Part shown: in pieces, positions 6,226-39,917 of the stretch
Numbering within the stretch: the stretch's first letter is position 1
How the letters are laid out: the number at the start of each line of letters is the position of its first letter
Sequence record: MZ726794.1
Length of the DNA stretch: 39,917 nt
Reading direction: 5' to 3' (one strand)
Origin: Escherichia phage vB_EcoA_ASO2B
Position numbers and translations under genes: made by a program
The notes under the pieces: model-generated
Seen by the model: only the letters and a program-made list of their open reading frames with translations
The model's database searches: none
What the model was told of the DNA's origin: nothing

Positions 6226-6248
6226 CCCTAAACTATCACTATAGGATT
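6226..6248 (+). promoter_or_regulatory. Phage RNAP promoter (ctaaactatcactatagga)
   Basis: Consensus core; position equivalent to T7 phi1.1. Confidence 0.75.
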
Positions 6249-6292
6249 AGACTCAAGGTCATGACTCAAAGTCGTGGCCTTCATGATTAACC
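6248..6292 (+). promoter_or_regulatory. RNase III-type processing site (R1.1-like)
   Basis: tagactcaaggtcatgactcaaagtcgtggccttcatgattaac; same motif at 13468 and 36784; resembles T7 R0.3 (actcaagg...gtgccctttatgat). Confidence 0.55.
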
Positions 6293-6321
6293 CTAACGTA
6301 AACTACTGGAGATTTAACCAC

Positions 6322-7977: not shown

Positions 7978-8232
7978 ATGTCTAAGAACTTAATGTTCAA
8001 CCGTTATACCGATACCTTCCACCTGTCCAACAACCCGTTTGCTTGCATTAAGCGTAACGAGAAGCTGGGCTACTTCGGGAAGGCCGTTAAGCTGTCACCT
8101 ACAGTCTTCGCTCTGATTACTCCGGGCAAAGCTGAAGAGGCTCGCCAGAAGCGCGAGACCAGCGTACCTGTGGTCTACACTAAGTGGCCTCGTGTTCGCC
8201 TGTTCGTTGAGTTCGTGAAGGAGGTGTTCTGA
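7978..8232 (+). CDS. Hypothetical protein (84 aa), gene 1.6 position
   Basis: SD aaggag upstream; stop overlaps next start (TGATG). Confidence 0.5.
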   Translation: MSKNLMFNRYTDTFHLSNNPFACIKRNEKLGYFGKAVKLSPTVFALITPGKAEEARQKRETSVPVVYTKWPRVRLFVEFVKEVF

Positions 8233-8774
8233 TGGGATGCATAGCTTGCTTAGAGAAGGATGACCGTTATCCACACACCTGTAATAAAGGAGTTAACAAC
8301 ATGACTGAACGCGAGCAAGAAATGATCGTGAAGCTGGTAGACAACAACGAAGGTCGCCCAGATTATTTGGATGGCTGCGGGATCCTTTGCTCTAATGTCC
8401 CTTGCCACCTCTGCCCCGCAAACAACAATCCCAAAATAACCTTAGGTGAAATCCGAGCGATGGACCATCGTAAGTCTAATCTGGATAAACAAGAGGTAAC
8501 TCCTACAGATGGCCAACCTTCCACTGAGTCAATCGACGCTGTCCGCAAGCCGTCCCACTATCAGGTCTTTGATGGTGTGGAATCCATTGAGATTATCGCT
8601 CGGTCCATGACTGTCAGTGAGTTCCGTGGCTTCTGCGTGGGTAACGTCCTGAAGTATCGACTCCGAGCTGGTAAGAAGTCCGAGCTGGCTACTATGGAGA
8701 AGGACCTAAACAAAGCGGCCTTCTATCAGGAGCTGTTCGACCTGCATAAAGGCAAGTGCTATGCTGCCGAGTGA
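8232..8774 (+). CDS. Probable gp1.7-like nucleotide kinase (180 aa)
   Basis: Synteny and size match T7 gene 1.7; Cys-rich N-terminus (CIACLEKDDRYPHTCNKG, CGILCSNVPCHLCP); sequence similarity to T7 gp1.7 is recalled, not verified. Confidence 0.6.
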   Translation: MGCIACLEKDDRYPHTCNKGVNNMTEREQEMIVKLVDNNEGRPDYLDGCGILCSNVPCHLCPANNNPKITLGEIRAMDHRKSNLDKQEVTPTDGQPSTESIDAVRKPSHYQVFDGVESIEIIARSMTVSEFRGFCVGNVLKYRLRAGKKSELATMEKDLNKAAFYQELFDLHKGKCYAAE

Positions 8775-13467: not shown

Positions 13468-13512
13468 TAGACTCAAGGTCATTCACAGCGAGTGGCCTTT
13501 ATGATTAGACTA
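13468..13512 (+). promoter_or_regulatory. RNase III-type processing site (R4.7-like)
   Basis: tagactcaaggtcattcacagcgagtggcctttatgattagac; same motif as 6248 and 36784. Confidence 0.55.
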
Positions 13513-13527
13513 AACGGAGGATTAACC

Positions 13528-15699
13528 ATGTTTGACCTTAAGAGTATCTGGGGTTCTGACATCGAGACCAACGGTCTCCTTGATACAGTCTCCCAGTTTC
13601 ACTGTGGGGTCCTGATTAACGCCGAGTCGAATGAGACCCTTAAGTATGGGGTAGCTCCGATGGTCGGTATCGTCGGTGGCTTCAAAGAGTATGTTCATAA
13701 AGTGGAAGAGATTGCCGCATCACCTGATGGTATGCTGGTATTCCATAACGGTATCAACTATGACGTCCCTGCTATAGACAAGCTGAAACGTCTGTACTTT
13801 GGGAAACGCTTTAACTTCCCGAAACACAAGATGATTGATACCTTGGTGCTGGGGCGCTTGATGTATCCAAACATTAAGTTCTCAGACATGGGCGCAGTGA
13901 AATCTGGTCGTCTGCCACCTAGTATGATGGGACGTCAGTCTCTTGAGGCTTGGGGCTATCGTCTCGGTGAGATGAAGGGTGAGTACAAACACGATTACGT
14001 TGCCAAATGCAAGGCTGAAGGTATCGAATATAAGGCTGGTGACGAATGGTTGTTCCCGTCTCAGGAGATGCTGGACTATAACGTTCAAGACGTTGTGGTC
14101 ACACTGGCGTTGTTCAAGAAGTTCCTGACTGACAAGTATTACTTCCAGTCTGAACAGTTCGCTTTCGACCAGATTTATGCGTTGCGTCTGGAACACGATG
14201 CTGCGTGGACCTGTGCGAAGATGGAGCGTAACGGCTATCCGATGAACACCGAGATGGTCGAAGGCTTATATCGTGAACTCACCGTCAAACGTGCAGAGTT
14301 GCTGGACAAGCTGCGTTCGACTTTCGGTAGCTGGTACGCACCAAAGGGCGGAAAGGAGTTCTTCAAGCACCCACGTACAGGCAAGGACCTTCCGAAGTAT
14401 CCGAGAGTCGTGTATCCTAAGGTCGGGTCAGTATTCAAGAAGCCGAAGAACAAAGCTCAACGCTTAGGTCTGGAGCCTTGCGAGTTCGACTCACGAGACA
14501 CGATGGAGGGAGCACCGTTCACACCTATCACTTACGTTGAGTTCAATCCGGGAAGCGGGGACCACTTAGCGAAAGTTCTGATGGAGCGTGGCTGGGAGCC
14601 TGTGGACTTCACTGACACCGGGAAACCTGTAGTCGATGACGAGACGTTAGAACACGTTAAGTTGCCAGACGAAGAGGCTCAGGCTTGCGTAGAGCTGGTC
14701 CGTGAGTATCTGGTAGTCCAGAAGCGCATCGGTCAGGCTGCTGAAGGTAAGAACGCATGGTTGAAACTTGTAGGTCCAGACGGACGTATGCACGGTTCAA
14801 TAAACCCATGCGGGGCAGTAACCGGACGTGCGACTCACAGTTCACCAAACATGGCTCAAGTCCCGGCTAACGGTGCTCCATACGGTGAGACTTGCCGTGG
14901 TGCTTTCGGTGCAGCTTGGAACAAGACGGATGGTAAGCCAGACCCTTGGATTCAAGTAGGCGTGGATGCTTCAGGTCTTGAGCTTCGTTGTCTAGGGAAC
15001 CGAGCGGCTCCGTTTGATGGTGGAGACTATGCGAAGACTGTGGTCGAAGGGGACATACACTGGGCCAACGCAGTAAACGCTGGGTTAGCACCTAACGTCC
15101 CACGCGACAAGTCGAGCCACGACCATGATGCTTTCCGTAATAACGCTAAGACGTTCATCTATGCGTTCCTGTATGGTGCAGGGGCCGCGAAGATTGGACT
15201 GATAGTTGGCGGTGGTAAGAAGGAAGGTTCAGCTCTCATGAAGAAATTCATTGAGGGCACACCAGCCATCAAGGACCTCAGGGAAGCTGTGAGTGATACG
15301 TTAATCTCAGACTCTAAGTGGGTGGACGGAGAGAACATCGTCAAGTGGAAACGCCGTTGGTTGCGTGGACTTGATGGTCGGCGTATCCACATCCGGTCTC
15401 CACACTCAGCACTTAACGCCTTACTTCAAGGCGATGGTGCGGTAGTCTGTAAGCACTGGATTGTCGAGACTGAACGTATGCTCGAAGATGCCGGGTATGT
15501 TCACGGCTGGGAAGGTGACTTTGCGTACATGGCTTGGGTTCACGATGAGCTACAGATTGCGTGTCGTACTCAGGAGATTGCCGAAGAAGTCGTCAAGATT
15601 GCTCAACTTGCTATGCGTAAGGTGGGTGAGTTCTATAACTTTAAATGTGTCCTTGATACCGAAGGTAAGATTGGACCAACGTGGAAGGAGTGTCACTAA
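13528..15699 (+). CDS. DNA polymerase (T7 gene 5 homolog)
   Basis: Start at 13528 (SD ggagg); the track start 13492 lies inside the R-site motif. Motifs DIETNGL (exo I), VFHNGINYDVPA, NAKTFIYAFLYGAG, YMAWVHDELQ; the thioredoxin-binding region is present. Confidence 0.96.
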   Translation: MFDLKSIWGSDIETNGLLDTVSQFHCGVLINAESNETLKYGVAPMVGIVGGFKEYVHKVEEIAASPDGMLVFHNGINYDVPAIDKLKRLYFGKRFNFPKHKMIDTLVLGRLMYPNIKFSDMGAVKSGRLPPSMMGRQSLEAWGYRLGEMKGEYKHDYVAKCKAEGIEYKAGDEWLFPSQEMLDYNVQDVVVTLALFKKFLTDKYYFQSEQFAFDQIYALRLEHDAAWTCAKMERNGYPMNTEMVEGLYRELTVKRAELLDKLRSTFGSWYAPKGGKEFFKHPRTGKDLPKYPRVVYPKVGSVFKKPKNKAQRLGLEPCEFDSRDTMEGAPFTPITYVEFNPGSGDHLAKVLMERGWEPVDFTDTGKPVVDDETLEHVKLPDEEAQACVELVREYLVVQKRIGQAAEGKNAWLKLVGPDGRMHGSINPCGAVTGRATHSSPNMAQVPANGAPYGETCRGAFGAAWNKTDGKPDPWIQVGVDASGLELRCLGNRAAPFDGGDYAKTVVEGDIHWANAVNAGLAPNVPRDKSSHDHDAFRNNAKTFIYAFLYGAGAAKIGLIVGGGKKEGSALMKKFIEGTPAIKDLREAVSDTLISDSKWVDGENIVKWKRRWLRGLDGRRIHIRSPHSALNALLQGDGAVVCKHWIVETERMLEDAGYVHGWEGDFAYMAWVHDELQIACRTQEIAEEVVKIAQLAMRKVGEFYNFKCVLDTEGKIGPTWKECH

Positions 15700-22465: not shown

Positions 22466-23032
22466 ATGGCTCAATACATTCCACTGAATGCTAACGATGA
22501 CTTAGACGCCATCAACGATATGTTAGCTGCTATCGGTGAACCAGCAGTCCTACAGCTTGACGAGGGGAACGCTGACGTCTCGAACGCTCAACGTATCCTG
22601 CATCGTGTCAATCGTCAGGTCCAAGCTAAAGGCTGGAACTTTAATATCAATGAAGCTGCTGTCCTGACACCTGATGTCCAAGACAATAGGATTCGATTCT
22701 TGCCGTCATACCTTCGCGTAATGACCGCTGGGGCCACCAGCTACTACAGCAACATGGGTGGATACCTGTACGACCTATCCACTCAGTCAACCACTTTCAC
22801 CGACCCCATCACGGTAGAGCTTGTGGAGATGAAGCCATTCTCCGAGATGCCTGTGGTCTTCAGGGACTACATCGTCACTAAAGCTAGCCGTGAGTTCAAC
22901 GCTAAGTTCTTCGGTAGCCCAGAGTCAGAGCTATACCTTCGTGAGCAGGAAGCAGAACTCTATCAGCAGGTTATGGAGTACGAGATGGACACTGGTCGCT
23001 ACAACATGATGTCTGACATCGGGAGGGACTAA
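22466..23032 (+). CDS. Tail tubular protein A (T7 gene 11 homolog)
   Basis: RILHRVNRQVQAKGWNFNINE, YIVTKASREFNAKFFG, EYEMD match T7 gp11. Confidence 0.9.
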   Translation: MAQYIPLNANDDLDAINDMLAAIGEPAVLQLDEGNADVSNAQRILHRVNRQVQAKGWNFNINEAAVLTPDVQDNRIRFLPSYLRVMTAGATSYYSNMGGYLYDLSTQSTTFTDPITVELVEMKPFSEMPVVFRDYIVTKASREFNAKFFGSPESELYLREQEAELYQQVMEYEMDTGRYNMMSDIGRD

Positions 23033-23259
23033 TGGCTAGTCACAACCTGAAGATTCACCGCCAGCACTTTGGTCCGGTACAACTAGGTCTAAAGACAGCA
23101 GAGCTGAGACTTAACGACCGGGACTTTAAGGTTGGCGATTGGCTTATCCTGAATGAGTGGGACAACGGGTATACTGGACAACAGGTAGCACGTAAGGTTG
23201 TCCACATTGCTGACGTTGGTGACATCGCTGAGGGATACGTCCTAATGAGTATGATTTAA
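23032..23259 (+). CDS. Small PUA/ASCH-like protein (DUF3850-like), 75 aa, inserted between gp11 and gp12
   Basis: Pattern KIHRQHFGPVQLGLKTAELRLNDRDFKVGDWLILNEWD...YTGQQVARKVVHI resembles DUF3850 small phage proteins (from memory); start overlaps gp11 stop (TAATG). Confidence 0.55.
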   Translation: MASHNLKIHRQHFGPVQLGLKTAELRLNDRDFKVGDWLILNEWDNGYTGQQVARKVVHIADVGDIAEGYVLMSMI

Positions 23260-23268
23260 GGAGGGCCT

Positions 23269-25626
23269 ATGCCACTAATTACTCAATCAATCAAGAACCT
23301 TAAAGGTGGTATTAGCCAGCAGCCAGACATACTGAGGTTCTCAGACCAAGGCGAAGCACAAGTTAACTGCTGGTCATCCGAGAGTGATGGCCTCCAGAAG
23401 CGCCCACCTACAGTCTTCAAGCGACGTCTTAACATCGACGTTGGAAGCAACCCTAAGTTCCACCTGATTAACCGTGATGAGCAGGAGCAGTATTACATCG
23501 TGTTCAATGGGTCAAACATTCAGGTAGTTGACTTGAGTGGTAATCAATACGCAGTGTCAGGTTCGGTAGACTACGTTAAGTCCTCCAACCCACGAGATGA
23601 CATCCGTGTCGTTACCGTGGCAGACTATACGTTCGTCGTTAACCGTAAGGTTGTCGTCAAAGGTGGAAGCGAGAAGTCACACTCTGGTTATAACCGCAAA
23701 GCACGAGCTTTAATTAACCTACGTGGTGGACAGTATGGTCGAACCCTTAAGGTGGGAATCAACGGTGGCGTTAAGGTCTCGCATAAGCTACCAGCAGGTA
23801 ATGATGCCGAGAATGACCCGCCTAAGGTGGACGCTCAAGCCATTGGTGCAGCTCTGAGAGACCTTCTTGTTACTGCCTACCCTACCTTCACGTTTGACCT
23901 TGGGTCTGGATTCCTGCTAATCACAGCTCCTTCAGGGACCGATATTAACTCAGTGGAGACGGAGGATGGCTACGCTAACCAGCTAATAAGCCCAGTCCTA
24001 GACACTGTGCAGACAATCTCTAAACTACCTCTTGCTGCTCCTAATGGGTATATCATTAAGATTCAAGGTGAGACAAACAGTAGCGCCGATGAATACTACG
24101 TGATGTATGACTCCAACACTAAGACGTGGAAGGAGACAGTGGAGCCGGGAGTTGTCACTGGGTTCGATAACACCACAATGCCACACGCTCTGGTACGACA
24201 ATCTGATGGCTCCTTTGAGTTCAAGGCTCTGGACTGGTCTAAGCGTGGTGCTGGTAATGATGACACAAGCCCTATGCCTAGCTTCGTGGATGCTACGATT
24301 AACGATGTGTTCTTCTACAGGAACAGGCTAGGGTTCTTGTCAGGCGAGAACGTAATCATGAGCCGTTCAGCAAGCTACTTTGCGTTCTTCCCTAAGAGTG
24401 TGGCGACACTGAGTGATGATGATCCTATTGATGTAGCTGTAAGTCACCCTAGAATCTCAATCCTTAAGTATGCCGTTCCGTTTAGCGAGCAGCTACTACT
24501 TTGGTCAGATGAGGTGCAGTTCGTGATGACAAGCTCAGGGGTCCTTACCTCGAAGTCTATCCAGCTTGATGTAGGCTCAGAGTTTGCCTTAGGAGATAAT
24601 GCCAGACCGTTCGCTGTAGGACGCTCAGTCTTCTTCTCAGCGCCTCGTGGATCATTCACCAGCATTAAGCGATACTTCGCTGTAGCAGATGTGTCTGACG
24701 TGAAGGATGCCGATGATACCACTGGTCACGTACTATCCTATATCCCTAACGGGGTGTTTGACATTCAGGGAACAGGGACTGAGAACTACATCTGCGTCAA
24801 CTCTACAGGTGCATACAACCGAATCTACATCTACAAGTTCTTGTTTAAGGACGGCGTACAGCTTCAAGCCTCTTGGTCTCACTGGGAGTTCCCTAAAGCT
24901 GATAAGATTCTGGCGTCTGCGTCGATTGGCTCTACCATGTTCATTGTTCGTCAGCACCAAGGCGGCGTGGACCTTGAGCACCTTAAGTTCATCAAGGAGG
25001 CAACTGACTTTCCGTCAGAGCCGTATAGACTCCACGTTGACTCCAAGGTGTCTATGGTCATCCCAATTGGCTCGTTTAATGCTGACACATATAAGACTAC
25101 GGTTGACATTGGTGCTGCTTATGGTGGTAATGCTCCGTCTCCCGGTCGGTACTATCTGATTGACAGTCAGGGTGCTTATTTGGACCTTGGGGACTTGGCC
25201 AGTATCTCTACTGTGATTACCCTCAACGGCGATTGGTCAGGACGTACAGTGTTCATCGGACGGCCCTATCTGATGTCCTACAAGTTCTCACGGTTCCTGA
25301 TTAAGATTGAAGATGATAGGGGCACTCAGTCTGAAGACACTGGTCGTCTACAGCTTCGTCGGGCTTGGGTCAACTACAAGGACACTGGCGCTCTGAGACT
25401 CATTGTCAGAAACGGTGAGCGAGAGTTCGTTAACACCTTTAATGGGTACACCCTTGGTCAGCAGACCATAGGGACTACTAACATTGGTGACGGGCAGTAT
25501 CGCTTCGCTATGAATGGTAACGCATTAACCACGAGTCTAACCTTAGAGTCCGACTATCCTACCCCAGTGTCAATCGTTGGATGTGGCTGGGAGGCGTCAT
25601 ACGCTAAGAAAGCTCGTTCCGTCTAA
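23269..25626 (+). CDS. Tail tubular protein B (T7 gene 12 homolog)
   Basis: Size (785 aa vs 794) and synteny; SD ggaggg. Confidence 0.93.
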   Translation: MPLITQSIKNLKGGISQQPDILRFSDQGEAQVNCWSSESDGLQKRPPTVFKRRLNIDVGSNPKFHLINRDEQEQYYIVFNGSNIQVVDLSGNQYAVSGSVDYVKSSNPRDDIRVVTVADYTFVVNRKVVVKGGSEKSHSGYNRKARALINLRGGQYGRTLKVGINGGVKVSHKLPAGNDAENDPPKVDAQAIGAALRDLLVTAYPTFTFDLGSGFLLITAPSGTDINSVETEDGYANQLISPVLDTVQTISKLPLAAPNGYIIKIQGETNSSADEYYVMYDSNTKTWKETVEPGVVTGFDNTTMPHALVRQSDGSFEFKALDWSKRGAGNDDTSPMPSFVDATINDVFFYRNRLGFLSGENVIMSRSASYFAFFPKSVATLSDDDPIDVAVSHPRISILKYAVPFSEQLLLWSDEVQFVMTSSGVLTSKSIQLDVGSEFALGDNARPFAVGRSVFFSAPRGSFTSIKRYFAVADVSDVKDADDTTGHVLSYIPNGVFDIQGTGTENYICVNSTGAYNRIYIYKFLFKDGVQLQASWSHWEFPKADKILASASIGSTMFIVRQHQGGVDLEHLKFIKEATDFPSEPYRLHVDSKVSMVIPIGSFNADTYKTTVDIGAAYGGNAPSPGRYYLIDSQGAYLDLGDLASISTVITLNGDWSGRTVFIGRPYLMSYKFSRFLIKIEDDRGTQSEDTGRLQLRRAWVNYKDTGALRLIVRNGEREFVNTFNGYTLGQQTIGTTNIGDGQYRFAMNGNALTTSLTLESDYPTPVSIVGCGWEASYAKKARSV

Positions 25627-25651
25627 CTTATTGAAGGGCCTATAGATTTAC

Positions 25652-25674
25652 CTTAACTATCACTATAGGGACTA
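25652..25674 (+). promoter_or_regulatory. Phage RNAP promoter (phi13-like)
   Basis: ccttaactatcactatagggact. Confidence 0.8.
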
Positions 25675-32000: not shown

Positions 32001-32931
32001 CATCGTGGAGCATAGCCTGACTGGTAGTAAGCGTAAATTCGATGACCGCTGGCTGAAGACAGCTGGTATCTCTGACGAGCAGTGGAAGGGCATTAAGTCC
32101 CTAATCCGTGAGTCAGTGACTCGTGGTCCAGACGGGAAGTATATCATCAAGGATAAGAAGGCGTTCAGTCAGGACCCAAGGGCTATGGACCTGTGGCGTA
32201 TGGGTGATACCATCGCTGACGAAACGTTACTCCGGCCACACAAGCTGTCCAACATGGACGCCAAGGCTTATGGTCCTCTCGCTAAGACTGTCCTTCAGTT
32301 TAAGAACTTCGTCATCAAGTCCATCAATGGACGTACCATGCGAACCTTCTATAACGCCACGAAGAACAACCGAGCGATGGACGCTGCCTTGTCCACTGTG
32401 ATGTCTATGGGTCTGGCTGGTATCTACTACATGGCTCAGGCGCACGTCAAGGCCTACGCTATGCAGGATGGTCGAGACCGTGACTACCTCAAGCAAGCTC
32501 TAGACCCGACGATGATTGGATATGCAGCTCTATCACGTAGTTCACATCTTGGTGGACCACTTGGGGTAGCTAACATTCTGGGTGGCATCGCTGGGTATGA
32601 GGACACTAAGATGCTCCGTTCGTCTATCCTACCTCGTTCGCCTACAGAGAAGCCTGAACGTGCCATCGCGTATGGTGCAGCTACAAGCGGCCCTGTGATG
32701 AATGTTGTTGGTAACTTCTTGGAGCAGGTTCCAGCTTTCGGATATGCTGCTAACGTTGGCGCTTCGGCTTACAACTTGGCTGGCTACCTCAAGGCTGATA
32801 CTCGTGTCAACGAGCGTGACTACATGACCGGGATGTATAATACGTTCCGTGAACTGGTTCCGAACGACCCAATTACCCAGAAGCTGTTGCTTGGAACGTT
32901 TGAGGAGCAAGGTATCCACATCAAGGACTAA
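29044..32931 (+). CDS. Internal virion protein D (T7 gene 16 homolog), 1295 aa, with divergent N-terminal domain
   Basis: From about residue 200 onward matches T7 gp16 (RLEARETARN, DLVRSPTGMQSGASGK, PHVYS, EENIxGLVGxENNSFLEARNLFDSD, RPHK, LSRSS); N-terminal ~150 aa lack the T7 transglycosylase motif I recall. Confidence 0.92.
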   Translation: MATRGIRNNNPGNIRVSKDQWEGMTGDDGSFVTFDSPESGVRALGKNLLSYGRQGYDSIEKIINRWAPPNENDTKAYIDSVVAATGIPATQSLDLSNPDTLSALAQAISFHETGSRYNPEVYQKGVERALNGISPKTPPVSANVFDALTEGLKAKPKVALGENLPTAAGLNIEGQAPEAPNESFGEMFYKSTGETMQEREDRSTWFGFGSATEAEVKNSMVGVAIRAGQTEDSLDVIGDVFNPTRWNNHKWSREELDQIRNAGVLPQYYGVITGGSPQNLTELINLALENQKLDQEKAKAGTGAQLAAGVIGAGVDPLTYVPIAGQVGKGAKLVNKMFTVAAQSGALAGVSEMARTSVAGGDAHVAEAILGGALFGGGMTAIADGLGRALGRNTNEFAGPATRLEARETARNVDGQDLSRLPIQEGEQTFSHQGVKFADVPNEPGSVRLEDGSILIGENPLNPKTRQVFDEVIEPERAAAGVNLGGLTEIGLKLLRSENPEIRGVAADLVRSPTGMQSGASGKIGTTASDVFERLRAVDHRFYNDIDDAVTEALKDPYFQTAFWRDSGAFRQDIYQRVSMAIEDGSGNLKAELTPGELKVYDLLKNQFDAKREMMENPAMFGRSDAQSIFPGSRFKGTYVPHVYSKQMKELYTKELGSPEALQEAIKKAWLTSYASRPEVKKRVDEALLESDPTLTPEGLAAAVDKYANDKAYGISHTEQFERSSVMEENINGLVGLENNSFLEARNLFDSDMSIVLPNGQTFSVNNLREWDMDKIVPAYNRRVNGDIAIMAGTGKTTKEMKDLVETMMNKAGDDGKLKGEVSTLRDTLKILTGRARRDGADDAAFAAVMRTMTDLSFFAKNAYMGVQNLTEIGGMLARGNVRAMLHGVPIFRDLAFRNKKVGASEIKDLHNVIFGKELDDSIRPSKQDVIDRLRSYSDLGRGTATALGTAKYYTGELAVRSPFTKALNGTTNYLLDAGRQGFLSDIVEHSLTGSKRKFDDRWLKTAGISDEQWKGIKSLIRESVTRGPDGKYIIKDKKAFSQDPRAMDLWRMGDTIADETLLRPHKLSNMDAKAYGPLAKTVLQFKNFVIKSINGRTMRTFYNATKNNRAMDAALSTVMSMGLAGIYYMAQAHVKAYAMQDGRDRDYLKQALDPTMIGYAALSRSSHLGGPLGVANILGGIAGYEDTKMLRSSILPRSPTEKPERAIAYGAATSGPVMNVVGNFLEQVPAFGYAANVGASAYNLAGYLKADTRVNERDYMTGMYNTFRELVPNDPITQKLLLGTFEEQGIHIKD

Positions 32932-32949
32932 ACTATCACTATAGGAAAC
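32927..32949 (+). promoter_or_regulatory. Phage RNAP promoter (phi17-like)
   Basis: ggactaaactatcactataggaaac overlapping the gp16 stop. Confidence 0.8.
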
Positions 32950-32995
32950 GGGAGGCGCTATCATAGGTCTCCTTTAATTCATAACAGGAGGCATA

Positions 32996-35900
32996 ATGTC
33001 CACGATTACACAATTCCCTTCAGGAAACACTCAGTACAGGATTGAGTTCGACTACCTCGCCAGAACGTTTATTGTTGTTACGCTGGTGAATAGCTCTAAC
33101 CCTACCCTGAACCGTGTACTGGAAGTTGGTCGAGATTACCGATTCCTTAATCCAACGATGATTGAGATGTTGGTTGACCAATCAGGTTTCGACATCGTTC
33201 GTATTCACCGTCAGACTGGAACTGACTTAGTGGTAGACTTCAGGAATGGCTCAGTGTTGACAGCTAGTGACCTGACCAATTCAGAGCTTCAGGCTATCCA
33301 TATTGCAGAAGAAGGTAGAGACCAAACGGTTGACTTAGCGAAGGAATATGCCGATGCTGCTAGTAGCTCTGCTGGCAACGCTAAGGATAGCGAGGACGAA
33401 GCACGACGAATCGCTGAGAGTATCAGGGAAGCTGGTCTAATTGGCTATATTACCCGTCGCTCCTTCGAGAAAGGCTACAACGTTACAACATGGAGCGAGG
33501 TCCTGCTATGGGAAGAGGATGGTGATTATTACCGCTGGGATGGTACGCTTCCAAAGAACGTTCCTGCTGGTTCAACTCCTGAAACTTCCGGTGGGATTGG
33601 ATTAGGTGCGTGGGTTAGTGTTGGTGATGCTGCTTTAAGAAGTCAGATTTCAAATCCTGAGGGGGCAATACTCTACCCTGAATTACATAGAGCACGCTGG
33701 CTTGATGAAAAAGATGTTCGTGGTTGGGGTGCTAAAGGTGATGGTGTCACTGATGATACAGCAGCGTTAACGAGCGCATTAAACGACATACCGGTTGGAC
33801 AAAAGATTAATGGCAATGGGAAGACATATAAGGTCACGTCCCTGCCTGACATTAGTCGCTTCATCAACACTCGTTTCGTTTATGAGCGCATTCCCGGACA
33901 ACCTCTTTATTATGCCTCTGAGGAATTTGTTCAGGGTGAGTTGTTCAAAATAACTGACACCCCTTATTACAATGCGTGGCCTCAGGATAAAGCGTTCGTA
34001 TATGATAATGTGATATATGCACCTTACATGGGCAGCGATCGTCATGGTGTCAGTCGTCTGCATGTATCATGGGTTAAGTCTGGTGATGATGGTCAAACAT
34101 GGTCTACTCCAGAGTGGTTAACTGATCTGCATCCAGATTACCCTACAGTGAACTATCACTGTATGAGTATGGGTGTATGTCGCAACCGTCTGTTTGCCAT
34201 GATTGAAACACGTACTTTAGCCAAGAACGCATTAACCAATTGTGCATTGTGGGATCGCCCCATGTCTCGTAGCCTGCATCTTACTGGTGGTATCACTAAA
34301 GCTGCAAATCAGCAATATGCAACAATACATGTACCAGACCACGGACTATTCGTGGGTGATTTTGTTAACTTCTCTAATTCTGCGGTAACAGGTGTATCCG
34401 GTGATATGACTGTTGCAACCGTAATAGATAAGGACAACTTCACGGTTCTTACACCCAACCAGCAGACTTCAGATTTGAATAACGCTGGAAAGAATTGGCA
34501 CATGGGTACGTCTTTCCATAAGTCTCCATGGCGTAAGACAGACCTTGGTCTAATCCCTCGTGTCACAGAGGTGCATAGCTTTGCTACTATTGATAACAAT
34601 GGCTTTGTTATGGGTTATCATCAAGGCGATGTAGCCCCACGCGAAGTTGGGCTTTTCTACTTCCCTGATGCTTTCAATAGCCCATCTAGTTATGTTCGTC
34701 GTCAGATACCATCTGAGTATGAACCAGATGCGTCAGAGCCGTGCATCAAGTACTATGACGGTGTATTATACCTTATCACTCGTGGCACTCGTGGGGATAG
34801 ACTAGGTAGCTCTTTGCATCGTAGTAGAGACATAGGTCAGACTTGGGAGTCACTGAGATTTCCACATAATGTTCATCATACTACATTACCTTTTGCTAAA
34901 GTAGGGGATGACCTTATTATGTTTGGTTCAGAACGTGCAGAAAATGAATGGGAAGCAGGTGCACCAGATGATCGTTACAAGGCATCTTATCCTCGCACCT
35001 TCTATGCACGCTTGAATGTAAACAATTGGAATGCAGATGATATTGAATGGGTTAACATCACTGACCAGATTTATCAGGGCGGAATAGTTAACTCAGGTGT
35101 AGGTGTTGGTTCGGTAGTTGTGAAGGATAATTACATCTACTACATGTTTGGTGGAGAGGACCATTTTAACCCATGGGCATATGGAGATAACTCAGCGAAG
35201 GACCCATTCAAATCAGATGGTCATCCCTCAGATTTGTATTGCTACAAAATGAAGATTGGCCCAAGCAATCATGTTTCCCGTGATTTCAGGTATGGTGCTG
35301 TACCTAACAGAGCTGTTCCCGTGTTTTTTGATACGAATGGGATTCGCACTGTTCCTGCGCCAATGGAATTTACAGGGGATTTGGGTTTAGGTCATGTGAC
35401 CCTTAGAGCCAGCACCAGTAGTAACATTCGCTCTGAAGTTTTAATGGAAGGTGAATATGGGTTTATCGGGAAGTCTATACCGACTGATAATCCAGCAGGG
35501 CAGCGCACCATATTTTGCGGAGGTGAAGGCACCAGTTCAACGACTGGCGCACAGATTACGCTTTATGGTGCAAATAACACCGACTCAAGGCGAATAGTTT
35601 ACAATGGTGATGAGCATCTGTTCCAGACTGCTGACGTTAAGCCTTATAACGATAACGCCATTGCGCTTGGTGGGCCAAGTAACCGTTTCACAACTGCATA
35701 TCTCGGAAGCAACCCTATTGTTACTTCTAATGGGGAGAAGAAAACAGAGCCGGTAGTTTTTGATGATGCTTTCCTAGATGCCTGGGGTGACGTTCACTAC
35801 ATCATGTATCAATGGTTAGATGCTGTTCAACTGAAAGGCAATGATGCTCGTATTCACTTCGGGGTTATTGCTCAGCAAATTCGTGATGTATTCATTGCAC

Positions 35901-36190
35901 ACGGTCTGATGGATGAAAACAGTACGAATTGTCGTTATGCCGTTCTGTGTTATGACAAGTATCCACGGATGACCGATACGGTATTTTCGCACAATGAAAT
36001 CATTGAACACACTGACGAGGAGGGTAATGTCACTACTACGGAAGAGCCTGTATTCACTGAGGTGGTTATCCATGAAGAGGGTGAAGAGTGGGGTGTCCGG
36101 CCTGACGGAATTTTCTTTGCTGAAGCCGCTTATCAGAGAAGAAAACTGGAAAGAATCGAAGCCAGACTTTCTGCTCTTGAACAGAAGTAA
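32996..36190 (+). CDS. Tail fibre / tailspike (gene 17), 1064 aa: T7-type N-terminal adaptor fused to sialidase-type (endosialidase-like) depolymerase with C-terminal intramolecular chaperone
   Basis: N-terminus RIEFDYLARTFIVVTL matches the T7 gp17 adaptor (NIPFEYLARKFVVVTL); two perfect Asp-boxes SGDDGQTW (34079-34102) and SRDIGQTW (34823-34846); C-terminal HFGVIAQQ chaperone motif with Ser911-x3-Lys-Lys at 35726. Confidence 0.9.
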   Translation: MSTITQFPSGNTQYRIEFDYLARTFIVVTLVNSSNPTLNRVLEVGRDYRFLNPTMIEMLVDQSGFDIVRIHRQTGTDLVVDFRNGSVLTASDLTNSELQAIHIAEEGRDQTVDLAKEYADAASSSAGNAKDSEDEARRIAESIREAGLIGYITRRSFEKGYNVTTWSEVLLWEEDGDYYRWDGTLPKNVPAGSTPETSGGIGLGAWVSVGDAALRSQISNPEGAILYPELHRARWLDEKDVRGWGAKGDGVTDDTAALTSALNDIPVGQKINGNGKTYKVTSLPDISRFINTRFVYERIPGQPLYYASEEFVQGELFKITDTPYYNAWPQDKAFVYDNVIYAPYMGSDRHGVSRLHVSWVKSGDDGQTWSTPEWLTDLHPDYPTVNYHCMSMGVCRNRLFAMIETRTLAKNALTNCALWDRPMSRSLHLTGGITKAANQQYATIHVPDHGLFVGDFVNFSNSAVTGVSGDMTVATVIDKDNFTVLTPNQQTSDLNNAGKNWHMGTSFHKSPWRKTDLGLIPRVTEVHSFATIDNNGFVMGYHQGDVAPREVGLFYFPDAFNSPSSYVRRQIPSEYEPDASEPCIKYYDGVLYLITRGTRGDRLGSSLHRSRDIGQTWESLRFPHNVHHTTLPFAKVGDDLIMFGSERAENEWEAGAPDDRYKASYPRTFYARLNVNNWNADDIEWVNITDQIYQGGIVNSGVGVGSVVVKDNYIYYMFGGEDHFNPWAYGDNSAKDPFKSDGHPSDLYCYKMKIGPSNHVSRDFRYGAVPNRAVPVFFDTNGIRTVPAPMEFTGDLGLGHVTLRASTSSNIRSEVLMEGEYGFIGKSIPTDNPAGQRTIFCGGEGTSSTTGAQITLYGANNTDSRRIVYNGDEHLFQTADVKPYNDNAIALGGPSNRFTTAYLGSNPIVTSNGEKKTEPVVFDDAFLDAWGDVHYIMYQWLDAVQLKGNDARIHFGVIAQQIRDVFIAHGLMDENSTNCRYAVLCYDKYPRMTDTVFSHNEIIEHTDEEGNVTTTEEPVFTEVVIHEEGEEWGVRPDGIFFAEAAYQRRKLERIEARLSALEQK

Positions 36191-36323
36191 TAAACAAAAC
36201 CCTTTTGCCATTAAGTTGGTGGGTAGATGTTAGAAGGTTGTGGAGTTAGAGGCTAACTACACGCTAGACAACATAAGGTAACAACTTTGGGTCACGGACG
36301 ACCCGCTTTAAACTGGAGGTTTT

Positions 36324-36783: not shown

Positions 36784-36832
36784 GTTAGACTCAAGGTCAT
36801 TACTGTATGTAGTGGCCTTTATGGTTAACACT
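36784..36832 (+). promoter_or_regulatory. RNase III-type processing site (R18.5-like)
   Basis: tagactcaaggtcattactgtatgtagtggcctttatggttaac; third copy of the 6248/13468 motif. Confidence 0.55.
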
Positions 36833-36882
36833 AACTAGTGGAGGAGACTCTACGTGCAATCTGATAAACCGGGAGGGCAACT

Positions 36883-39092: not shown

Positions 39093-39186
39093 CTGAATGA
39101 ATAACTATAGGCGAAAACTGAATTAATAAGCAGTTAGTAACCTATAGTTACTACCAGTCTAACCTACTGTTTTACAAGGAGTTTGG

Positions 39187-39209
39187 ACTTAACTATCACT
39201 ATAGGGAAG
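39187..39209 (+). promoter_or_regulatory. Phage RNAP promoter near right end (phiOR-like)
   Basis: gacttaactatcactatagggaaga. Confidence 0.8.
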
Positions 39210-39789: not shown

Positions 39790-39917
39790 TCTCACAGTTC
39801 AAGAACCTCAAGTCTCCCCATAGGCCCTCTTTAAGTCCAGACCAAAGGCCCTACCCGTTACTGCTCCTTGCAGTCACAGCCAGTCTGTCATAAGGTTGGA
39901 CCGATGGTCAGGACTTC
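39790..39917. repeat. Proximal part of predicted direct terminal repeat; predicted physical genome terminus at ~39790
   Basis: tctcacagttcaagaacctcaagtctccccatagg parallels the T7 left end TCTCACAGTGTACGGACCTAAAGTTCCCCCATAGGGGG; continues into window start. Inference by analogy. Confidence 0.4.

Follow-up and report, generated by a model that had tools for sequence, protein, structure and literature searches.

Gene 17 of Escherichia phage vB_EcoA_ASO2B very probably encodes an endosialidase tailspike of the phage K1F type

The DNA analysed here (39,917 nucleotides, sequence record MZ726794.1; "the window" in the following) comes from Escherichia phage vB_EcoA_ASO2B (ASO2B), which was obtained in Alberta with an O2 strain of avian pathogenic E. 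coli (APEC) as the isolation host and assigned to Kayfunavirus with phage K1F as the closest relative (PMC10612097). Gene 17 of this phage occupies positions 32996..36190 on the plus strand, running from ATG to TAA with the stop codon included, and its open reading frame (ORF) specifies a protein of 1064 amino acids. We are highly confident that this K1F-like phage uses gene 17 to encode an endo-α-2,8-sialidase tailspike of the type known from the K1F endosialidase (endoNF), and that the gene is transcribed late from its own promoter for the phage RNA polymerase. The gene is already known, as ASO2B is a published phage and its allele is nearly identical to that of a textbook enzyme. The original prediction, which had been made from the sequence alone, had suspected as much ("probably known, not novel"), and the exact sequence of gp17 was indeed found in GenBank (UAW58429.1), where it is labelled 'hypothetical protein ASO2B_043'.

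A Pfam scan of the 1064-residue protein revealed seven domains, each above its curated cut-off and in the order seen in endoNF: Phage_T7_tail (PF03906, residues 10–120; 58 bits vs. a cut-off of 25.2), Tail_spike_N (156–211), End_N_terminal (246–312), End_beta_propel (PF12217, 313–754; 736 bits vs. 24), End_beta_barrel (424–506, inserted in the propeller), End_tail_spike (757–910) and Peptidase_S74 (PF13884, 914–971; 36.7 bits vs. 22). Four of these are endosialidase domains. A search with the sequence against the PDB matched residues 245–910 to the K1F endoNF structures 1V0E, 3GVJ/K/L and 3JU4 (E = 0) and residues 790–1064 to the endoNF stalk and chaperone structure 3GW6 (E ~1e-183 to 1e-185). 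The N-terminal structures of T7 gp17 (7BOZ, 8DSP, 8E4G) matched residues 6–115 only, with E values of ~1e-15 to 1e-17. Together, the solved structures span residues 1–1064 at 97–99% identity. Endosialidase identity, as originally proposed, is thus supported by the matches to the endoNF crystal sequences, by the four endosialidase domains and by 97.65% identity to K1F gp17; a comparison with endoNF and the S74 chaperone family had been suggested as a check, and both similarities proved significant. As also anticipated, the protein is about twice as long as the T7 fibre (T7 gp17 comprises 553 residues in 7BOZ), and its resemblance to T7 is confined to the N-terminus.

Two perfect sialidase Asp-boxes had been reported, and we located them at residues 362–369 (SGDDGQTW, nt 34079–34102) and 610–617 (SRDIGQTW, nt 34823–34846). 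The pattern S-x-D-x-G-x-[TS]-[WFY] occurred on average 0.0066 times in 20,000 shuffles of the protein, none of which contained at least two copies as gp17 does. The original prediction had considered that the boxes might fall outside a β-propeller fold; both lie within the propeller match and outside the inserted β-barrel. The coordinates of the domains and of the upstream signals are collected in Table 1.

Table 1. Features of gene 17 and its upstream region in the window
Feature	Position	Strand	Support
Phage-RNA-polymerase promoter for gene 17 (ACTATCACTATAGGAAAC)	32932..32949	+	9 motif copies on the + strand
Ribosome-binding site AGGAGG	32986..32991	+	4 nt upstream of the ATG; agrees with the ribosome-binding-site feature of M63657
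N-terminal particle-binding module (aa 1–245): T7-gp17-like adaptor (10–120), then Tail_spike_N-like part (156–211)	32996..33730	+	PF03906, PF18668
Endosialidase N-terminal extension (aa 246–312)	33731..33931	+	PF12218, E = 2.7e-37; endoNF crystal constructs start at 245/246
Catalytic six-bladed β-propeller (aa 313–754) with both Asp-boxes and H350, R549, E581, R596, R647	33932..35257	+	PF12217, E = 7.5e-222
β-Barrel polysialic-acid-binding domain within the propeller (aa 424–506)	34265..34513	+	PF12195, E = 6.6e-48
Triple-β-helix stalk (aa 755–910) with predicted polysialic-acid site R837, S848, Q853 and folding sensor R897	35258..35725	+	PF12219, E = 5e-78
C-terminal intramolecular chaperone/self-cleaving domain (aa 911–1064; Peptidase S74)	35726..36187	+	PF13884; 3GW6, E = 2.9e-185

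The alignment with K1F gp17 (AM084414) was gapless; both precursors comprise 1064 residues, a match in length that had been noted before. It revealed 25 substitutions, namely V26I, T95N, A96S, G123S, A145E, M152I, A241V, T265I, E337D, R440Q (the only one in the β-barrel), S522R, A538V, N565S, T728A, D757S, R759H, V783I, I803L, I838T, S878T, V888A, T889I, R915K, V1003I and Y1020F. All 25 positions, together with seven others that were checked, carry residues that are seen in other natural 1064-residue members of the family, and T728A and V888A were found together in one metagenomic variant. At the codon level, 60 synonymous changes stood beside the 25 non-synonymous ones. With the exception of N565S, which affects a site discussed in the literature, all 34 other functionally mapped residues that we checked are identical to those of K1F. 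They include, in K1F numbering, the catalytic residues H350, R549, E581, R596 and R647; the propeller-core residues Q330, D331, K410, H527, S528, K585 and N699; the residues S460, S468, G504, G730, N732, G742, E373, N386 and Y387, which are involved in host discrimination; R897, T910, S911, K916 and D994, which belong to the self-cleavage and chaperone functions; and the stalk residues R812, Y821, R837, S848, Q853 and R866, among which R837, S848 and Q853 are those that we take to form the stalk polysialic-acid site of endoNF. The catalytic, propeller-core and host-discrimination roles, and those of the stalk residues R812, Y821 and R866, were taken from the deep mutational scan of K1F, in which position 565 appeared as tolerant and evolvable and the stalk was called an adaptive host-range 'tuning knob' (PMC12632334).

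The same comparison bears on the possibility that gene 17 has decayed or become inactive. A catalytically dead or non-maturing tailspike would only bind its receptor, or the phage would use another receptor-binding protein. No observation spoke for this case; we considered it solely because there are laboratory tools of this kind, namely endoNF variants that have lost catalysis and still bind polysialic acid, and we regard it as extremely improbable. The ORF is intact, has the length of its K1F counterpart and shows no frameshift; H350, R549, E581, R596, R647, S911, K916 and R897 are all present; and the 60:25 ratio of synonymous to non-synonymous changes points to purifying selection. Furthermore, ASO2B is viable and lytic, and no second tailspike or fibre gene was found in the stretch from gene 16 to gene 19 that was compared with the K1F gene order. 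Nothing in the sequence argues against reading gene 17 as an endosialidase gene.

The Ser of the TSNGEKK motif (residues 910–916) had been assigned to residue 911 and equated with the autocleavage position of K1F. Both statements held: the codon lies at nt 35726–35728, and the K1F record AM084414 annotates two mature peptides, gp17* (codons 2–910) and gp17-CTD (the C-terminal domain, CTD; codons 911–1064). By this annotation, the mature protein ends at Thr910, where the stalk ends as well. The uncleaved construct crystallised as 3GW6 carries Ala at position 911 (IVT-A-NGERK vs. IVT-S-NGEKK in ASO2B). It represents endoNF-S911A, and S911 and K916 were described as an indispensable Ser–Lys dyad that also requires R897 of the triple β-helix (PMC8326128); the dyad and R897 of the cleavage centre are likewise described in PMC4690869. 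Lys916 is present in ASO2B, and the C-terminal HFGVIAQQ motif, which had been recognised as a chaperone signature, was confirmed at residues 954–961 (nt 35855–35878) of a protein that matches the Peptidase S74 domain.

On these grounds, the maturation of gp17 can be pictured by carrying over what is known of endoNF. The 1064-residue precursor would trimerise, nucleated by its C-terminal chaperone domain (residues 911–1064). After folding of the triple-β-helix stalk, Arg897 of the neighbouring subunit would complete the reaction centre, whereupon the Ser911/Lys916 dyad would cut the Thr910–Ser911 bond and the chaperone CTD would be released. The mature, presumably SDS-stable trimer (residues 2–910) would be held on the tail via the T7-gp17-like N-terminal module (up to residue ~245), bind polysialic acid at its sites in barrel and stalk, and cleave it in the propeller. 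The virion could in this way tunnel through the capsule of E. coli K1, and we therefore propose that gene 17 is a host-range determinant.

The classic serotypes of APEC include O1:K1 and O2:K1. ASO2B lysed strain ECL21443 (O2, +++) and strain ECL20885 (O1, ++), and none of three O78 strains (PMC10612097, Table 1). Lysis across O-serogroups but not of O78 fits targeting of the capsule rather than of the O-antigen. The nearest relative, phage Mt1B1_P3, grows on the K1-capsule-positive strain E. coli Mt1B1, and a ΔemrR mutant, which is affected in capsule regulation and said to lack the K1 capsule, is resistant to it, for which reason its authors regard K1 as the adsorption receptor (PMC12361893). 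Taken together, the genetics of Mt1B1_P3 and the host range of ASO2B lend indirect support to the prediction, made by analogy, that ASO2B is specific for K1.

Several observations set limits to this picture. Firstly, the exchange R915K (TSNGERK in K1F, TSNGEKK in the ASO2B protein) adjoins the catalytic Lys916, and V888A and T889I are located near Arg897. These changes are offset by the occurrence of K915 and I889 in the infectious phage Mt1B1_P3 and of A888 in another natural variant. Secondly, the O1 strain ECL20834 resists lysis by ASO2B (PMC10612097); absence of K1, O-acetylation of the capsule or an unrelated defence could account for this. Thirdly, the report on ASO2B uses neither the word 'endosialidase' nor the stem 'capsul' and gives no capsule types of the strains; it treats tail-fibre variation without recognising a K1 endosialidase (PMC10612097).

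In an alternative reading, the endoNF fold and its self-processing are retained, but natural substitutions shift the substrate preference or the host range within or beyond K1, for example by way of processivity or of tolerance towards O-acetylated polysialic acid. A K1F-like 'K1 specificity' would then be only approximately right. The 156-residue stalk holds eight of the 25 substitutions relative to K1F (binomial P = 0.022, a single modest value without correction for multiple testing), and it is this region that was termed a 'tuning knob'; N565S affects an evolvable site, and T728A is two residues away from the G730/N732 loop that discriminates K1 hosts (PMC12632334). In addition, I838T adjoins the stalk-site residue R837, and of two O1 strains ASO2B lysed only one. 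On the other hand, the residues to which a direct part in catalysis, binding and host discrimination has been ascribed are all unchanged, the same substitutions are found in the K1-dependent phage Mt1B1_P3 (its five differences from ASO2B are given below), and the stalk enrichment amounts to that one P value. We thus consider such a shift unlikely. The same low probability applies to the more specific idea that the eight stalk changes, N565S and T728A retune processivity or the tolerance of capsule modifications, so that the spectrum of ASO2B among K1 strains differs from that of K1F; a tailspike retuned in this manner might explain the one resistant O1 APEC strain. A K1F-like endosialidase with K1 as its predicted substrate remains the preferred reading of gene 17.

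With regard to transcription, the promoter motif of the T7 group of phages was found in nine copies on the plus strand of the window, compared with 0.01 expected. The copy that serves as the putative promoter of gene 17, ACTATCACTATAGGAAAC, begins right behind the stop codon of gene 16 and coincides with a 'promoter' feature at positions 43–69 of the K1F record M63657 from 1991, which corresponds to 32929–32955 of the window. The promoter core ACTATCACTATAGG occurs, always on the plus strand, at 6232, 7936, 9128, 17172, 20014, 21013, 25656, 32932 and 39192, and additionally at 2908–2924. Three promoters (near 2873–2924, 25618–25669 and 39154–39205) also resemble one another over a longer upstream stretch of about 50 nt. 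A scan for sigma-70 promoters gave five sites vs. 6.8 in shuffled sequences and hence no excess, and we therefore ascribed the transcription of gene 17 to the phage promoter. Downstream of the gene (36188–36323), the predicted RNA fold was not better than that of shuffled sequences (z = –0.61), a consensus scan for terminators gave no hit in the stretch up to the holin gene, and Rfam at gathering thresholds gave no match in the window. The 'terminator' of M63657 was rejected, as this record contains a truncated ORF of 920 amino acids and the feature falls within sequence that is now known to be coding. We also dismissed antisense and out-of-frame ORFs over gene 17 (e.g., 35816..36211 on the minus strand, 131 amino acids), because the aligned annotations of K1F and Mt1B1_P3 have only plus-strand genes here and gene 17 fully explains the region.

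As to base composition, gene 17 represents the lowest-GC stretch of 3.2 kb in the genome (45.2% GC vs. a mean of 50.0% with a standard deviation of 1.6%). Within the gene, the catalytic and C-terminal parts (44.5%) are lower in GC than the N-terminal adaptor (47.6%). This composition is consistent with horizontal acquisition of the enzymatic head.

The genomic surroundings agree with the membership in the K1F group that had been inferred from gp17. Gene 17 is preceded by gene 16 (internal virion protein D) and followed by the holin gene 17.5, gene 18, the Rz gene and the terminase gene. A total of 37,492 of the 39,917 bases (~94%) align to K1F, mostly at 88–97% identity; the identity to K1F over this share was also put at 93–96%. 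The genome is collinear with that of Mt1B1_P3 at ~99% nucleotide identity. With a genome-wide nucleotide similarity to K1F of more than 70% and a collinear gene order, ASO2B falls within Kayfunavirus (Studiervirinae). The window represents the complete genome in circularly permuted form: its position 1 corresponds to position 105 of K1F, and 39790–39856 is identical (100%) to K1F positions 1–67. Since the ends lack an exact terminal repeat, the direct terminal repeat was apparently collapsed or split in the assembly.

Elsewhere in the genome, four observations deserve mention. An ORF of 75 amino acids (23032–23259, plus strand) with matches to DUF3850 (E = 2e-19) and ASCH lies between the tail-tube genes 11 and 12; the 225-bp segment that contains it is present in Mt1B1_P3 and absent from K1F, and represents an accessory gene in an operon whose other genes are structural. 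The segment 8227–8965 (plus strand), the only one of any size to align poorly with Mt1B1_P3, harbours an ORF of 180 amino acids (8232..8774) with a DUF3310 match (E = 8e-21) and a second one of 65 amino acids without a Pfam match, and looks like a mosaic replacement of early genes. The DNA polymerase gene (13492–15699, plus strand) is a single uninterrupted ORF, while the K1F annotation builds gene 5 from two pieces joined around an internal ORF, gp5.3; as, in addition, about 600 bp of K1F (14928–15531) have no counterpart in ASO2B, the latter appears to lack the element that intervenes in gene 5 of K1F. Finally, a direct repeat of 51 nt (TTAGACTCAAGGTCAT...GGCCTT.ATG.TTAAC.CTAAC) with 84% identity between its copies occurs on the plus strand at 6247–6297 and 36785–36835, i.e., in intergenic positions ~30.5 kb apart. 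One copy directly follows a promoter, and genes 18 and 18.5 flank the other. Its core resembles an inverted repeat, and the element could be a processing site for RNase III.

Few phage depolymerases have been investigated as thoroughly as endoNF, for which crystal structures, a described maturation mechanism and a complete deep mutational scan are at hand. The value of the present assignment lies in the re-annotation of two 'hypothetical protein' entries, UAW58429.1 and its Mt1B1_P3 counterpart QNJ49132.1 (MT496969.1), which show 97–99% identity to a crystallised enzyme, and in a receptor prediction for ASO2B. Recognition of the endosialidase predicts the K1 capsule as the receptor, from which the host range among O1 and O2 APEC would follow. 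Resistance would likely arise via loss of the capsule, and ASO2B is predicted not to be usable on non-K1 APEC such as O78. These predictions bear on the proposed use of the phage against colibacillosis.

Among known systems, endoNF itself (K1F gp17; PDB 1V0E, 3GVJ-L, 3JU4, 3GW6) is the closest characterised relative: length and domain order are the same, and the catalytic, binding and self-cleavage residues are identical. In K1F, too, gene 17 stands between gene 16 and the gene 17.5 for the holin, downstream of the same phage promoter. The 25 differences are conservative or polymorphic and enriched in the stalk, and none affects a residue reported as essential. Even closer are the tailspikes of Mt1B1_P3 (QNJ49132.1), with 99.5% identity and the differences R148L, L149I, T728A, A740S and V888A, and of vB_EcoP_PR_Kaz2018 (QFP92956.1), with 99.3% identity and seven substitutions. 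The endosialidase of phage phi92 (4HIZ) shares the catalytic architecture and matches residues 246–908 (E = 1e-238). IME207 (47.6 kb) and YX22 (155 kb), two unrelated phages, share the gene from about nt 524–562 onwards (residues ~175–188; window ~33519–33557) at 94% and 81% nucleotide identity, respectively. The tailspikes of phi92, IME207 and YX22 differ from gp17 in their N-terminal adaptors, which fit other kinds of tail, and these endosialidases exemplify an exchange of modules, not whole-protein orthology. The report on ASO2B, too, places its tail protein in one cluster with that of ASO2A, a Phapecoctavirus (PMC10612097). Conversely, a tail spike of 843 amino acids with a solved structure (9VVR) has an N-terminus nearly identical to residues 1–245 of gp17; residues 246–880 find no match in it, while its C-terminal end again resembles the stalk tip and CTD (residues 881–1055, E = 1e-18). 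Judged from these alignments, gp17 has two different putative module junctions, one at residue 245 and one at residues ~175–188. At its C-terminus, gp17 has in common with other Peptidase S74 proteins (the L-shaped fibre pb1 of T5, the neck appendages of GA-1 and phi29, the K5 lyase and the eukaryotic MYRF) a trimerising domain that cleaves itself at a Ser-x4-Lys motif and is discarded after folding. The sequence relation to these domains is, however, only distant (3GUD, E ~1e-13; T5, 18% identity), and the functional domains upstream of them are unrelated to the endosialidase.

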